DNA of 32,150 bases from a virus. The notes beneath the pieces were generated by a model. It did not search any database and was not told where the DNA came from. It saw nothing but the letters and a program-made list of their open reading frames with translations. Shown in pieces: positions 6,657 through 24,196 of the stretch. The stretch is taken from UHGV virus genome UHGV-0070112; one strand, 5' to 3'. The translations under genes were made by a program, and so were the position numbers. Within the stretch, counting starts at the first letter, position 1; every line of letters starts with the position of its first letter.

Positions 6657-7242
6657 CGCGCGGCCGCGACGTTAGAACCATGGGTATTTTAACTACATAA
6701 GGTTATGAAGATCTTCGGAAAAAATGAGATGATGGTTTGTTTGGTTATTTAATGAGCGAAAACAGCCAAAATCCCCATGCAGGGATGATAAAAAACGTCA
6801 TTGTGTAGACGACTGCAGGCTGTAATTTATTCAAATTAAATTTCCTTAGTAGGGCTCTATGTGTCCTACAACATCCAACCTACCTAAAGACATTGATTGA
6901 TACAAGAGGAAAAACACTACTTTTTTATCAAATTGGGATCGGTTTTGTTTCCGATGGCGCGGCATTATACGGAGATAACCCAAGTTATCAACAGAAATTG
7001 CCAGCATATGTACGCAAAATGTGCTGTTTCTAATTTTGAGATGGTTGTGGTGCCGGGTGCCTCCCGGTGAGCATGCCCCAACAGACATTACTCGCGCGGT
7101 ATTCACAGGGCTTTCGCTCTATTAGTTGGACGCCCCTCCGCATAGGGGGATTCACCACACGGATAATTTAGGATGTAGTCATAGGCGGCGTCAATAACTG
7201 ACACTCTGTCAAAGGCACCATTACGATGCCTTTTGCACAGTG

Positions 7243-7977: not shown

Positions 7978-8373
7978 TGGTTGATCCGCTTACTGATACG
8001 GAGCGACCAACCTAAGTTGTCGCAGATTCAAATTGTGGCCCTGCCTTTAAGTCACTTTGCGCGCAGCTGGGACATGTAGTTTTCGCATCGTGATCGGGAT
8101 TCGCTTCAGGCGCTGGCCCCGCAGCCATATAAGTGCCGGTTACGGTTCCGGCCAGGCCTCTTCCTCAACGGGTTATTCTCCATACGGATTTCCGTTTGTT
8201 GGTCGTTCCTGCGATCTCAATTTTCCGGTTACGTTTATCCGGTGGCTTACGCCCGGTTTAGCCCTAAGGTAAGGGATTTGGTTGTGGTGGCAGGCGCCCA
8301 TCTCCTGCTTAACGTCAATCAACGCTTGCACATCGCTACGTTATGGGCCGGGATCAACCGATATTTTCGCTCG

Positions 8374-8476
8374 CCACAACGGAAAGAGCACTGGTAATCT
8401 GTAGCGGGTATTTACTCGCGCACGCCGTTTTGACGTGCGGCCCATTTCAGCATGGTCAATGATCTTACCTGTTGTG
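8374..8476 (-). other. Paired-motif element, late-leader copy
   Basis: Minus strand reads CACAACAGGTAAGATCATTG ... ~80 nt ... CCAGTGCTCTTTCCGTTGTGG; the two arms are imperfect reverse complements. A second copy is at 23361-23475 on the plus strand. No credible ORF in 7978-8538. Confidence 0.3.
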
Positions 8477-8538
8477 CGCTCCGTTTCGTGGAGCAGACGC
8501 CGCCGGAATCGCACCGGCAGAATCATCACATTGGTATA

Positions 8539-8570
8539 TGGTGCTGGTTGACGGAATCGAACCGCCGTAG
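8539..8570 (-). tRNA. tRNA 3' segment (T-arm, acceptor 3' strand, CCA)
   Basis: Minus strand ctac-GGCGG-TTCGATT-CCGTC-AACCAGC-A-CCA. Acceptor 3' strand AACCAGC is the exact complement of the 5' strand GCTGGTT at 9037-9043. Begins 1 nt after the HNH stop codon. Confidence 0.45.
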
Positions 8571-8990
8571 CTATTTCGTTATTTCCAATAAACCTGCGTG
8601 GACTTTTCTGTGGCAATTAGCACAGAGGACAATACACTTCCTCACTTCATCTTTAAGTCGATTTCGTGATCTGCCACATAGATTGGAAGGGTCGCCTTCT
8701 TTGCTGCCGGCGTTGTCATGATGAAGATCCAGAACAACAGGTTCTTTTTCTCCGCAATTTTGGCATCCTATGAAGCGTTTATATCGAGCTAGAAACTGAC
8801 GGTTTGAACTTGTTTTTCTCGTTCTCGTTGACTTTATTAGCTGTCGCCTTGACTCATTGGTTGCATAACTCAAAGCATCTCTTTCCTTAGCGCACGCCTT
8901 ACAGATATTTTGTAGGCCATCGCTCTTTCCTTTGTTTTTATGGAAATCGGAAGCAGATTTTAACTCTTTGCATTTGCTACAAATTTTCAT
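8571..8990 (-). CDS. HNH endonuclease with N-terminal Cys-rich motif
   Basis: 139 aa; N-terminal CSKCKELK...CKAC and C-terminal HNH motif (LDLHHDN...CANCHRKVH). AT-rich by eye. AGGA RBS. Lies between the two halves of the tRNA-like gene. Confidence 0.8.
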   Translation of the reverse strand: MKICSKCKELKSASDFHKNKGKSDGLQNICKACAKERDALSYATNESRRQLIKSTRTRKTSSNRQFLARYKRFIGCQNCGEKEPVVLDLHHDNAGSKEGDPSNLCGRSRNRLKDEVRKCIVLCANCHRKVHAGLLEITK

Positions 8991-21372: not shown

Positions 21373-21582
21373 TCAAACTTTTTGTTCTTTAAGCTTGCTA
21401 TACAGCTCCGGTTGGAAAACAAGTTTCCCATCGGTGCGGTACGCGGCTTCAGCAGCCCTCCCTTTTGGGATCAAGCGACCGGGTCTGTTCCGCCACTGAT
21501 AAACAGCTTCGCTGGATATGCCAAAGAACTCGGCTACCTTCTCAGCGTTTCCAAAGTACTTTTCAACATCATCGGTGGTCAT
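21373..21582 (-). CDS. cro: Cro-like repressor (HTH)
   Basis: 69 aa with HTH (VAEFFGISSEAVYQWRNR). AGGAG RBS. Divergent from cI across an operator-bearing gap. Confidence 0.65.
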   Translation of the reverse strand: MTTDDVEKYFGNAEKVAEFFGISSEAVYQWRNRPGRLIPKGRAAEAAYRTDGKLVFQPELYSKLKEQKV

Positions 21583-21682: not shown

Positions 21683-22309
21683 ATGGAAACTGTCGGACAA
21701 CGAATAAAATCGCTTAGGCGAATCACCAGAACCTCACAAAAAGAGCTTGGGAAGTTTTGTGGGGTCAGTGATGTCGCAGTTGGGTATTGGGAAAAGGACG
21801 TAAACGTCCCAGGAGGGGAATCTCTTTCCAAACTAGCAAAATTCTTCAATACATCAATTGATTACATACTTTTTGGCACTGAGTTTGAGGGAAACTTAAT
21901 AACTAAGATGCGAAAAGTTCCCGTGATATCGTGGGTGCAAGCAGGATTATTCACTGAATCAAAGCCTGAAGATGTCTTGCATGATGCCGAAAAATGGGTG
22001 GAAACGTCTCTCCGCATCAGCGATAACTCGTTTGCCCTTGAAGTAAAGGGAGACTCAATGACAAATCCTAATGGACTGCCCACGATTCCTGAAGGCGCAA
22101 CGGTCATCGTTGATCCAGACATTGAGCCAATTCATGGAAAGATTGTAGTTGCACGAATAGATGGGACCAACGAGGCCACGGTCAAAAAACTGGTTGTAGA
22201 CGGTCCGCAAAAATTTCTTGTCCCGCTAAATCCCCGTTATCCTAACATCGCCATCAATGGTAACTGCGTCATTATTGGTGTGGTTAAAGGCGTTCAATAC
22301 GAGCTCTGA
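21683..22309 (+). CDS. cI: CI-type repressor (HTH plus S24 LexA-like peptidase domain)
   Basis: 208 aa; N-terminal HTH (TSQKELGKFCGVSDVAVGYWEK), C-terminal S24 domain with catalytic-serine motif KGDSM and downstream Lys. Confidence 0.85.
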   Translation: METVGQRIKSLRRITRTSQKELGKFCGVSDVAVGYWEKDVNVPGGESLSKLAKFFNTSIDYILFGTEFEGNLITKMRKVPVISWVQAGLFTESKPEDVLHDAEKWVETSLRISDNSFALEVKGDSMTNPNGLPTIPEGATVIVDPDIEPIHGKIVVARIDGTNEATVKKLVVDGPQKFLVPLNPRYPNIAINGNCVIIGVVKGVQYEL

Positions 22310-22327
22310 TCTAAGCTAATCTCCCTT

Positions 22328-22358
22328 CGACACCAAGCTAAGAAAAGTTTGGTGTTTT
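22328..22358 (+). terminator. Intrinsic terminator after cI
   Basis: Stem ACACCAA / TTGGTGT with 12-nt loop, followed by TTTTT. Confidence 0.5.
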
Positions 22359-22369
22359 TTCTTGACGAC

Positions 22370-22398
22370 AAAACTAAGTTAAGTTAGATTTTCATCTA
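22370..22398 (+). promoter_or_regulatory. Candidate PL promoter with embedded left operator
   Basis: TTGACG, 17-bp spacer, TAGATT. The spacer holds CTAAGttaaGTTAG, the same half-site family as the cro-cI operators. Confidence 0.4.
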
Positions 22399-22494
22399 TC
22401 AACAGCGAAGAGGCAGGACGCCCACGAAGTAGCCGCCCGGGGCATATGAAGTCCGGGATGATTCGCTGACAGATAAACCAAATAGGAACAGATC

Positions 22495-22728
22495 ATGGCA
22501 AGCAAAGGCATTGAAAACCTTATCAAGGACGCATTAGCAAACGGCTGTCATGTAGTCCGTAAAGCGCATCGCTTCGAGGTAAGCAAGAAAGGCCAAAAAT
22601 CAATCACTCTTATTATTTGTGAAGATGGCACAGCTTACCGGGGAGATATTGACCTAACGATCGCCATAGCCATTCGCACTCAAAAAGAAATGCGCAGCAT
22701 CCTCGGCCTGCCGGCCAAGGCAAGTTAA
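22495..22728 (+). CDS. Hypothetical 77-aa protein, first ORF after candidate PL
   Basis: AGGA RBS 8 nt upstream; no recognisable motif; not Arg-rich. Sits in the slot lambda uses for rexAB. Confidence 0.4.
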   Translation: MASKGIENLIKDALANGCHVVRKAHRFEVSKKGQKSITLIICEDGTAYRGDIDLTIAIAIRTQKEMRSILGLPAKAS

Positions 22729-23360
22729 TTACCACAGGTATCTTCGGGAGGGGTTGCGAAGCTGGATTGACCACCAGCAACAGAAACTCACCCGACATAC
22801 AGCAGCCGTTTAACCCACGGCGTCGGGGGTCCAGTAGACCTGGATTAATACTGTAGGGGTTGTGCCGGTTGGTCGCCGGCGCCCCGCCCGAAGATACCTG
22901 AACGAACATGGCGAAGCCGACAGCGTTGAAGGCGATTTTCTCGGTTTGCGCGCTAAACAATAGCGGGGGTGAAATCGGGGCGGAGAAGCAGAATCCGCGA
23001 TGTCGGGACTTGATACTTCCGGCCATACCAACAAGCCGAATGATCGCGTAACGATCCTTTGCATCTGCCCCGGCGAGGTGGCGCCGCCGGACCGGGGTAG
23101 ATGAATCGTACACAACATGAAAGCGCATTCCATCTTCATCCGTCGTGGGGACTGGTTTGTAACTGAAGGAGTGCGCTTCCAGTTGTGAACGGCAATATTC
23201 ACGACCGTTGTATGGCACATGCAGCGTTAGCAGCCCGGATGGTTCCCTTGAAGTTCCATGCGCTATCCGGACAACTGGAATGTGCAAGCCAAGTGTTTCA
23301 GGCACGACGTGCGCCCCACCAGCGCGGCGAAAAGGTGTGACGCCCGGGAAGAGTCCGGGA

Positions 23361-23475
23361 CACAACAGGTAAGAGCATTCCCGCCACACGAGGCTGAAAC
23401 CCAATCGCCATGTGGATGCGCCGAAAAGCTACGACGGGGCGTTGGTAGAAGATCGGAGTGCTCTCTCCGTTGTGG
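23361..23475 (+). other. Paired-motif element, early-left copy
   Basis: CACAACAGGTAAGAGCATT ... ~77 nt ... GGAGTGCTCTCTCCGTTGTGG on the plus strand; same arm sequences as 8374-8476. Inside a GC-rich ORF-poor stretch. Confidence 0.3.
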
Positions 23476-23616
23476 TAATTGCGGCTATGCGCACGTGGCG
23501 AGCCAACCCGTTCATGGAATGCGTTTCCGGGCAGTGTACGTCGCCGGTTATGGCTTAACCCGGCAGGTGGAGGCACCACCGCCACAACCTAGTTAACTGT
23601 GCTGTGTGTAGTCTTG

Positions 23617-23687
23617 GCGGTTATCCAGTTTTCCACTATCCAAAGGAGGAAGAGGATAACGTTCTGATGGATAACCGCCCTTTTTAC
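23617..23687 (+). promoter_or_regulatory. 11-bp perfect inverted repeat enclosing the RBS and start of a small ORF
   Basis: GGCGGTTATCC (23617-23627) and GGATAACCGCC (23669-23679) bracket AAGGAGGAAGAGGA and the ATG at 23667; followed by CTTTTTAC. Confidence 0.4.
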
Positions 23688-23828
23688 ACAATACACAAGA
23701 GCATCACCGGGCGACGGGCTCATTACCCAATCCACCCGGGCGGATTTGCAGCCGCAGGTGCTCTTCTGTGTTGTGTACGGAGAAATTCCCGGCGGTGGCA
23801 GCCGCCTTTCGAGAGGGTAAAACCATGA
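23667..23828 (+). CDS. Hypothetical 53-aa Arg-rich protein
   Basis: MDNRPFYTIHKSITGRRAHYPIHPGGFAAAGALLCCVRRNSRRWQPPFERVKP. GAGGA RBS 10 nt upstream; stop overlaps the next gene's ATG (ATGA). Could be spurious in GC-rich DNA. Confidence 0.3.
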   Translation: MDNRPFYTIHKSITGRRAHYPIHPGGFAAAGALLCCVRRNSRRWQPPFERVKP

Positions 23829-24196
23829 GTAATGATCGCATGACAGTCGTGCCCGATTTCCTGGGCGAACTGGACGCCGGCGTATTCATGAACAAGATTG
23901 CGGCGGCTCTGAATACCACCGCGCTCGGCGTTCTGAACAACGGCAACAAAGGCAAAGTAGTCCTGACCTTTGATTTTGAGCGTATGGGCAACTCTGTTGA
24001 AGAGAAGCGCGTCAAGATTAAGCACAAGCTGAACTACAGCACCCCAACTCCCCGCGGAAAAGCGTCGGAAGAGGACACCACCGAAACACCAATGTGGGTC
24101 AATAAAGGCGGCAAGCTCACCATCCTGCAGGAGGATCAAGGGCAACTCTTCGGTATCACCGGCACGGTGGACGGAAAGCTTAAAGCGGCTCAGTGA
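23825..24196 (+). CDS. Hypothetical early-left protein
   Basis: Start revised to ATG 23825 (MSNDRMTVVPDFLGE...) with GAGGG RBS; 123 aa. Confidence 0.5.
   Translation: MSNDRMTVVPDFLGELDAGVFMNKIAAALNTTALGVLNNGNKGKVVLTFDFERMGNSVEEKRVKIKHKLNYSTPTPRGKASEEDTTETPMWVNKGGKLTILQEDQGQLFGITGTVDGKLKAAQ

Follow-up and report, generated by a model that had tools for sequence, protein, structure and literature searches.

A colinear array of conserved, structured RNA modules with homology to Qin dicBF and STnc100 in the early-left region of an ST64B/SfV/CPS-53-like temperate phage

Introduction

Polycistronic RNAs of phages are processed by RNase III at hairpins such as the lambda N-leader site and the T7 R sites, and small stable RNAs such as species 1 and 2 of phage T4 are found in phage tRNA clusters. 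The small RNA DicF of the Qin prophage of Escherichia coli K-12 has a 190-nucleotide (nt) form whose 5' end needs RNase III and a 53-nt form that needs RNase E, according to Ragunathan et al. (bioRxiv 10.1101/2023.04.14.536235), and a study in 2016 reported no similarity to DicF in the phage databases of that time (PMC5069750). STnc100 and PasD have been reported to be related prophage small RNAs that are associated with Hfq (bioRxiv 10.64898/2026.05.13.724894). Here we compare with these systems positions 22729-23824 of the virus genome UHGV-0070112, a stretch of about 1.1 kb that lies between a PL-like promoter and a yfdP-like gene. The window referred to below is the whole stretch of DNA analysed, which is 32,150 nt in length.

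The comparison leads us to regard the stretch as non-coding DNA that probably serves the early-left transcript of the PL-like promoter as a small-RNA and processing cassette, composed of colinear and independently exchangeable modules. The chain consists of A, B, Ha, mid, Hb, M2, a linker together with T, and Hc. The modules are homologous to the RNase III hairpin of Qin, to the domain between dicF and dicB of Qin, and to STnc100; transcription from the PL-like promoter, processing by RNase III as well as by RNase E, termination at T, dependence on Hfq, and action in trans are inferred.

Structured modules

Three covariance models were used: R1, constructed from M2; R2, constructed from the PL-proximal leader; and R3, a hairpin model constructed without K-12 sequence. 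Lengths of helices are given in base pairs (bp). The modules and the leader that precedes them are located as follows.

22404-22467, plus strand: conserved structured leader (the "anchor"), 64 nt, directly 3' of the PL-like promoter
22735-22900, plus strand: module A, a domain closed by a 19-bp stem; its inverted repeat (I4) is 95% complementary
22901-23106, plus strand: module B, a multi-hairpin structured RNA
23107-23190, plus strand: Ha, closing-stem hairpin and predicted RNase III substrate (R3, 99.9 bits)
23190-23360, plus strand: mid, a structured RNA with a terminal hairpin at 23344-23360 and the invariant loop GAAGAG(U/A)
23357-23481, plus strand: Hb, second shared-stem hairpin, whose 3' arm overlaps the first helix of M2 (R3, 23.2 bits, expect value (E) 1e-3)
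23470-23590, plus strand: M2, a five-helix, cloverleaf-like domain of an STnc100-related superfamily (R1, 122.8 bits)
23589-23615, plus strand: single-stranded, conserved linker (..GCUGUGUGUAGUCUU) that could be a seed or an RNase E region
23616-23685, plus strand: T, a predicted DicF-like terminator hairpin with 11-bp perfect arms and a U tract
23681-23783, plus strand: Hc, third shared-stem hairpin, a three-way structure directly upstream of yfdP and a predicted RNase III site

About eight structured RNA modules, arranged colinearly, make up the stretch. Among 80 viral contigs with YfdP at least 98% identical, the interval was present in at least 35 different block combinations, the blocks followed one constant order (leader, orf77, A, B, Ha, mid, Hb, M2, T, Hc), and the distance from leader to yfdP ranged from 417 to 1798 nt. 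A BLAST search of phages and E. coli genomes never covered the whole stretch; separate pieces matched many unrelated records, mostly in unannotated DNA. In ST64B, phiNP, SfIV, mEp460, and one E. coli prophage, cI and the yfdP homolog are separated by 0.8-1 kb of unannotated DNA. An earlier reading of this DNA from the sequence alone (the sequence-only reading) had proposed both a comparative alignment with related prophages and covariance-model searches for structured RNAs. The former revealed conserved modules that are colinear and exchangeable, and the latter, performed with R1 and R3, uncovered homologies to STnc100 and to elements of Qin.

The modules are conserved folded RNAs on the plus strand, with compensatory changes in most of them. 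Predicted folding of positions 22900-23830 relative to shuffles gave a z-score (z) of -5.6 for the plus strand and -3.2 for the minus strand. Given that G-U pairs are frequent and that the R3 score of Ha was 99.9 bits on the plus strand compared with 39.1 bits on the minus strand, the conserved product is most readily understood as RNA in the direction of PL transcription. The region of module A (22725-22910) had a minimum free energy (MFE) of -83 kcal/mol (z = -5.5); the module was found in 24 of the 80 loci as well as in ST64B, with just two compensatory pairs among seven sequences. Compensatory changes affected 11 of 50 predicted pairs in module B (6 sequences) and 9 of 29 in mid (18 sequences), the latter being a module that other prophages also carry downstream of cI and that precedes tRNA-Arg in SPN9TCW. 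The strong conservation and the compensatory changes, which extend over more than 100 contigs of viruses and over several genera of enterobacteria, argue for selection on a folded RNA, not decay. The sequence-only reading had suggested a structured early-left leader and had named a decayed remnant without conserved structure as an outcome that would contradict it. A highly structured leader was borne out, with its conservation and compensatory changes speaking against such a remnant, and transcription would proceed from the PL-like promoter.

The leader at 22404-22467 was detected, nearly invariant, in 60 of the 80 YfdP loci. Its outer helix is CAGCGAA/UUCGCUG, and its inner hairpin shows two compensatory pairs (CCCGG/CCGGG versus CCGGU/ACCGG). 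This leader is a better candidate for cis-acting control of transcription than is the 1.1-kb array. Its hairpin at 22437-22458 and that at the end of mid (23344-23360) have related CCCGG/CCGGG stems and GAAG-containing loops, and each follows GACGCCC; this pair may be what the sequence-only reading termed a paired-motif element. Repeated paired motifs are in any case real, with three hairpins of the array sharing the closing arms CACAACAGGTAAGAGCA and TGCTCTTTCCGTTGTG.

The arms of these three hairpins (Ha, Hb, and Hc), like those of a fourth copy on the minus strand (8367-8479), approximate CACAACAGGUAAGAGCA and UGCUCUUUCCGUUGUG and form a helix of ~20 bp with a conserved bulged A and one mismatch; the apical parts of the hairpins are variable. 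Hb had an MFE of -51 kcal/mol (z = -2.65), and its arms are 95% identical to those of the fourth copy. Hc, which scored 17.4 bits with R3 and showed a folding z of -4.7, was present in 47 of the 80 loci, with compensatory changes at 7 of 35 pairs (34 cells; none of 500 shuffles reached this value) and with 98.3% of cells paired, compared with 41-54% for slid partners. In many phages the 3' arm of the hairpin continues into M2 without a break, with GUUGUGG doubling as hairpin arm and first strand of the M2 closing helix. An initial viral scan for whole hairpins, performed with an overly strict pattern, returned only two loci.

R3 also identified a hairpin in K-12 Qin at L216:3166-3265 (35.1 bits, E 6e-7). 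With dicF located at L216:3383-3435, the 5' end of the 190-nt RNA is placed at ~3246 by length from L216:3435 and at ~3251 by a promoter-based estimate, both of which fall within the 3' arm of this hairpin (GUGCGCUUCCGGUUGUGG, L216:3241-3258). Given that Ha, Hb, and Hc match R3 and are homologous to the Qin hairpin that contains the 5' end of 190-nt DicF, they are predicted to be RNase III sites.

The fourth hairpin copy is part of a feature that spans 8367-8990 on the minus strand. Directly after an open reading frame (ORF) with an HNH-endonuclease-like COOH-terminal motif (8571-8990) comes a tRNA 3' half (8539-8566) that comprises the T arm, the 3' strand of the acceptor, and ACCA, and the hairpin is situated ~60 nt beyond this tRNA 3' half.

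In M2, compensatory changes were found at 16 of 26 pairs (104 cells, compared with at most 18 for slid controls; none of 500 shuffles reached this value) and supported all five helices across 38 R1 matches, in an alignment that was fitted to model R1 itself. A 7-bp closing helix stands beside a 5-bp hairpin in a cloverleaf-like layout. R1 matched Qin at L216:3456-3584, between dicF and dicB (43.9 bits), and also ST64B, SfIV, 118970_sal3, D6 (two copies), Sf11, and LASTA; the 3' motif of M2 was present in at least 120 viral contig stretches. Bacterial genomes were also scanned with a 5' M2 pattern, which yielded many unrelated matches in Sphingomonadales, and R1 upheld only 18 loci, all in Enterobacterales (E. 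coli, Enterobacter, Kluyvera, Buttiauxella, Lelliottia, Pantoea, and Silvania).

A bona fide copy of the small RNA STnc100 (Rfam, 71.6 bits) is also present in the window, on the minus strand at 6989-7189; it lies outside the stretch and was the sole Rfam match in the whole window at the gathering score. R1 matched its core at 7042-7160 on the minus strand (29.7 bits, E 2e-7), which is a paralog of M2. The elements of the STnc100 core fold, including the closing helix, the internal hairpins, a last hairpin with the loop GGAGGCACC, the linker, and the terminator, were all recognized in M2 and the segment that follows it.

In LASTA, Sf11, and D6/P1-like contigs, the distance between M2-type domains and real tRNA genes is 3-230 nt. 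In the Klebsiella phage LASTA, M2 ends 3 nt before tRNA-Arg, and in Sf11 a hairpin and M2 precede tRNA-Ser by ~100 nt. The possibility that M2 always stands beside a tRNA was rejected, since a tRNA was found within 60 nt downstream in only 1 of 104 unique copies; linkage to tRNA clusters is recurrent at distances beyond 60 nt. In L092 (phage D6) and in the D6/P1-like L138 and L119, each locus has two or three M2-type domains interleaved with genes of the same strand for tRNA-Met, -Ser, -Thr, and -Asn. Close relatives (L110:1800-1925, L115:1116-1241, and L168:1371-1496) contain a tRNA-like gene with a 68-nt insert that scored ~40 bits with the Rfam tRNA model and was negative with ARAGORN. This gene and isolated T-arm fragments are positioned between an Hb-type hairpin and M2. 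The acceptor stem of the gene (UGUGGUG/CACCACA) is similar to the helices that close M2 and STnc100.

Downstream of M2, an identical linker was found in most of the 104 unique copies, even where the downstream hairpin differed. A pairing of the linker with helix 2 of M2 appeared in the single-sequence MFE structure and was dismissed, being unsupported by variants. T begins with one arm of an 11-bp perfect inverted repeat, GGCGGTTATCC (23616-23626), whose other arm, GGATAACCGCC (23669-23679), is followed by CTTTTT, and its fold energy is -29.8 kcal/mol. The inverted repeat, to which the sequence-only reading had drawn attention, has the appearance of a functional RNA hairpin, namely a DicF-like intrinsic terminator. 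Its position corresponds to that of DicF, in a PL-equivalent operon after a cI/DicA-type repressor gene and with a GGCGG..CCGCCC-U5 hairpin. In relatives that lack the loop insertion, the Rfam DicF model gave 29.1 bits (L110) and 31.3 bits (L143), compared with 76.7 bits for the K-12 control. We class T as a probable DicF-like terminator module and not as a member of the DicF family. The loop sequence AGGAGGAAGAGGAUAA(A/C)(U/G)UUCUGA (23640-23666) also occurs after tRNA-Arg at L007:2340-2395 in LASTA, an unrelated phage of 62 kb.

Coding potential

The stretch 22729-23824 is non-coding. The power of three-base periodicity was 0.61 (4th percentile), compared with 2.2-11.4 in neighboring genes, and none of seven ORFs in the stretch matched Pfam or PHROG. 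The sequence-only reading had found no convincing coding frame, and it had noted only long, compositionally odd ORFs. The ORFs present are of this kind, with 263 and 136 amino acids on the minus strand and 112 on the plus strand; the absence of periodicity and of family matches, together with the failure of relatives to maintain the frames, agrees with that description. A conserved protein under purifying selection, which it had named as a finding that would contradict it, did not emerge from the coding tests or from the analysis of ORF conservation.

That the stretch encodes unrecognized small or unusual proteins, in the form of a 53-residue ORF, the 112-residue ORF of the plus strand, or the 263-residue ORF of the minus strand, is extremely unlikely in our estimation. 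The longest stop-free run, 233 codons on the minus strand, exceeds that of 99% of mononucleotide shuffles, but substitutions in relatives are distributed evenly over codon positions 1, 2, and 3 of the 263-residue ORF (246/291/298), and nearly all relatives have 1-nt insertions or deletions within it. The 53-residue ORF has the following position.

23667-23828, plus strand: ORF of 53 amino acids with its ATG (23667) inside the T hairpin and an ATGA overlap with the yfdP ATG at 23825

This ORF has a plausible Shine-Dalgarno sequence and is intact in the nearest relatives, but it matched neither Pfam nor PHROG. Across 96 upstream variants the frame is in many cases open for only 2-39 codons, and the ATG is often missing or shifted out of frame with the nucleotide sequence and hairpin retained; the start codon itself sits in a loop insertion that other relatives lack. 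The recurrence of the loop sequence in LASTA indicates that the apparent ribosome-binding site in the T loop is a conserved RNA feature and not evidence for an ORF. With regard to what the sequence-only reading had proposed for this site, the 11-bp repeat, the start inside the hairpin, and the ATGA coupling were all found as described, whereas the arginine-rich ORF is not a conserved gene. A 47-residue ORF in module B is likewise interrupted by stop codons in relatives. Coding hypotheses were rejected on the basis of Pfam and PHROG searches, periodicity, substitution counts by codon position, and ORF conservation.

Comparison with known systems and proposed processing

Both in this locus and in Qin dicBF, a repressor of the cI/DicA type is followed by a promoter of the PL type, by small ORFs, by an extended stretch of non-coding DNA, and by early-left genes. 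The two also have in common the homologous hairpin and the M2 homolog described above (35.1 and 43.9 bits, respectively) and a GGCGG...CCGCCC-U5 terminator hairpin after UUGGCGGU.(U/C)CAGUUU. In K-12, the segment that separates the hairpin from dicF likewise folds into a domain, which is closed by GUUGUGGC/GCUGCAAC, so that the layout of a hairpin, a domain of ~120 nt, and a DicF or DicF-like hairpin is common to both loci. The two loci differ in that the detectable M2 homolog of Qin follows dicF whereas M2 precedes the DicF-like hairpin in the window, and in that the window array is about three times as long, contains the additional modules A, B, mid, and Hb, and is followed by yfdPQR-type genes instead of dicB. 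In comparison with DicF itself, T has a loop insertion of ~28 nt and a different single-stranded 5' part, and the window RNA shows no complementarity to ftsZ beyond chance.

M2 resembles STnc100 and PasD in being a multi-branch domain closed by one helix, whose last hairpin has its GGAGGCACC loop beside the 3' strand ..CACCACAAC; a single-stranded linker and then a terminator hairpin come after the domain. STnc100 and PasD are, however, located downstream of Q or stx, whereas the M2 array is part of an early-left leader, and their linker or seed sequence is unlike that of the window. Like the lambda N-leader site and the T7 R sites, the window hairpins are imperfect helices of ~20 bp between units of an early transcript, with Hc directly upstream of the ribosome-binding site of the first gene. 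They differ from those sites in their near-invariant closing stem with a bulged A and a mismatch, in their variable apical "cargo," and in the use of the 3' arm as the first helix strand of M2, and their cleavage is predicted.

On the basis of these similarities, we propose that RNA polymerase would transcribe the array from the PL-like promoter and that host RNase III would cut Ha, Hb, and Hc (~20 bp each), as occurs with the Qin homolog that gives rise to 190-nt DicF. Cleavage at Hb, together with termination or 3' protection at T, would release a stable RNA of ~215 nt (about 23470-23685) that consists of M2, the single-stranded linker, and the terminator hairpin, a layout similar to that of STnc100 and 190-nt DicF. 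RNase E may trim this RNA to shorter 3' species, and cleavage at Hc would set the 5' end of the yfdPQR mRNA. The released RNA would most likely be a trans-acting base-pairing small RNA of the Hfq type, directed at host or phage mRNAs.

Several observations weigh against this proposal. The prediction of RNase III cleavage is based on hairpin homology and on a Qin site placed by RNA length (about +/-5 nt); Hb and Hc fit R3 weakly (23 and 17 bits); and the near-invariant closing stem suggests sequence-specific recognition that RNase III alone would not explain. The Rfam DicF model (RF00039) gave 16.5 bits with E = 2 for 23603-23680, below its gathering score of 48. The Rfam STnc100 model (RF02076, gathering score of 47 bits) gave no match in 22300-24000, the interval that includes M2, even at E <= 10; in the same interval, a search of Rfam at this threshold returned only the weak DicF match and chance matches. 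In a crude test of pairing with K-12 ftsZ (-70..+30) by RNAduplex, the window RNA performed no better than 97% of shuffles, compared with 6% for DicF. Finally, termination at T may be weak because the loop is unusually large and only five U residues are present.

Alternative interpretations

The sequence-only reading had likened the region to an N-leader or an RNA-based antitermination region. A processive antitermination leader of the nut/N or put type, whose modules would load Nus factors or bind RNA polymerase to allow read-through, is in our view unlikely. The position directly after the PL-like promoter fits such a leader, and the terminator-like T hairpin upstream of yfdP would call for a read-through mechanism. 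The 3' arm of Hb-type hairpins carries UGCUCUUU or UGCUCUCU, which resembles the rrn boxA octamer; the 5-bp hairpin at the end of mid, with its invariant loop and compensatory stem changes, is loosely boxB-like; and the 64-nt leader at 22404-22467 occupies the position equivalent to putL of HK022. The boxA-like octamer is, however, buried in a helix of ~20 bp, the loop of the boxB-like hairpin has 7 nt, and no boxA and boxB pair accompanied by an arginine-rich N-family protein was found in the region; there is no N-like protein, the 77-residue ORF upstream of the array is optional, and the arginine-rich 53-residue ORF is not conserved. As in HK022, a structured RNA stands at the start of the early-left transcript of a lambdoid phage without obvious N. 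We nevertheless rejected the put hypothesis after comparison with the HK022 genome, in which putL was located: BLAST revealed no similarity, R2 gave no match at putL or putR, and a second, PR-side copy that would form a left and right pair was not present in the window. The put RNA is ~70 nt and the window array is far longer, and its modules also occur outside early operons, beside tRNA genes of virulent phages and in P1/D6-like plasmids.

Proximity to tRNA genes could also mean that the modules are functionless relics or spacers of a decayed or remodelled island of phage tRNA genes, which we regard as quite unlikely. The tRNA-like gene with its 68-nt insert (40 bits) and the T-arm fragments of L110, L115, and L168, the occurrence of M2-type domains near real tRNA genes, the cloverleaf-like form of M2 with its 7-bp closing helix next to a 5-bp hairpin, and the tRNA 3' half at 8539-8566 beside the fourth hairpin copy are all in keeping with this idea, and M2-type domains and hairpins in LASTA, Sf11, SPN9TCW, and D6/P1-like genomes are co-oriented with and close to tRNA genes, as are the small RNAs of T4-type tRNA clusters. 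In contrast to such clusters, the window copy has no tRNA gene: ARAGORN detected none in the window, and neither ARAGORN nor Rfam (E <= 10) detected a tRNA or tRNA-like element in the region 22300-24000. Functionless relics would also be hard to reconcile with the wide conservation of modules with compensatory changes and with the processing of the Qin homologs into a functional small RNA. The same modules acting at the level of DNA, as an attC-like or miniature inverted-repeat transposable element (MITE)-like recombination site, an origin, or a boundary of mosaic exchange, with hairpins in single-stranded DNA or with protein-binding sites, would be very unlikely. Hairpin arms are near-invariant with variable interiors, module boundaries coincide with these arms in a manner consistent with recombination at common sequences, and the arm ends (...AAC / GTT...) bear a superficial likeness to attC R boxes. 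Opposed to this notion are the many G-U pairs of the plus strand that become A-C on the minus strand, the strand difference in the R3 score, the lack of visible target-site duplications in the flanks, an orientation that always matches the surrounding transcription unit, and, as reported by Ragunathan et al., the cutting of the Qin homolog as RNA by RNase III.

Alternatively, the shared-stem hairpin with the M2/STnc100-type domain may represent a widespread and unrecognized class of phage non-coding RNA that is tRNA-like (class II cloverleaf-like) and acts by its fold and not by base-pairing, a reading that we consider possible though unlikely. It is suggested by the 7-bp closing helix, the 5-bp terminal hairpin, and the invariant GGAGGCACC loop, and it includes maturation by the tRNA- and rRNA-processing enzymes of the host. 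Such an RNA could be a decoy or mimic for a tRNA- or RNA-binding host factor or for a tRNA-targeting defense nuclease, or it could be a processing scaffold. The near-invariant stem and loop and the repeated linkage to tRNA genes in temperate, virulent, and plasmid-prophage genomes would thereby be explained.

DicF, STnc100, and the processing of dicBF by RNase III are already known. We found no description in the literature searched of these elements as one modular kit, of such a kit filling the gap between cI and yfdP in ST64B/SfV-like phages, or of its extension to virulent and plasmid phages and tRNA islands. Interpretation of the stretch as a small-RNA and processing cassette would assign defined RNA modules with testable ends to a gap of 0.4-1.8 kb that has no annotation in hundreds of prophages of the ST64B/SfV/CPS-53 type, whose hosts are E. 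coli, Salmonella, Klebsiella, Citrobacter, and their relatives. It would also link the DicF processing pathway to a larger modular family that includes STnc100 and is found in functional and virulent phages as well, and the covariance models and coordinates can now be used for annotation of these RNAs. On this interpretation, a processed, structured RNA would be delivered by phages at a very early time after induction or infection, and the target of this RNA could affect host physiology or phage competition.

Genomic context

The window contains the immunity region of an ST64B/SfV/CPS-53-like temperate phage. The features on either side of the array are as follows.

21373-21582, minus strand: cro-like gene
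21683-22309, plus strand: gene for a cI/LexA-like repressor (Peptidase_S24 plus helix-turn-helix)
22329-22356: terminator after cI
22362-22390, plus strand: PL-like sigma-70 promoter after the cI terminator (TTGACG-17 nt-TAGATT)
22495-22728, plus strand: ORF of 77 amino acids (phrog_12911, E 8e-37)
23825-24196, plus strand: yfdP-like gene, the first substantial early-left gene (phrog_204, E 2e-41)

The order of cI, terminator, PL-like promoter, and 77-residue ORF reported in the sequence-only reading was reproduced, and the promoter was the sole promoter-like site within 22250-23900. The 77-residue ORF, whose family has no known function, is an optional insert that was present in 11 of the 80 loci sharing the leader and yfdP, and it is a real phage gene. 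The array is followed by yfdP-, yfdQ- (DUF2303), and yfdR-like genes, and the yfdP homolog of relatives is annotated as YfdP family or Sb37. The GC content of 22729-23824 is 0.567 compared with 0.504 for the whole window (56.7% versus 50.4%), corresponding to the 96th percentile among all windows of 1096 nt, so that the impression of GC-richness gained by eye was correct.

The rexAB genes of lambda are situated between cI and the PL promoter and are co-transcribed with cI. The terminator at 22329-22356 and the PL-like promoter at 22362-22390 separate cI from the stretch, which is downstream of the promoter and therefore does not occupy the slot of rexAB, as had been supposed. An SfV-like prophage has been reported to encode, at the 3' end of its cI gene, the small RNA svsR, which is similar to co293 and limits infection by other phages (PMC12803456, 2026). 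The position that corresponds to svsR/co293 in the window is 22230-22361, comprising the 3' end of cI and the terminator, and lies outside 22729-23824.

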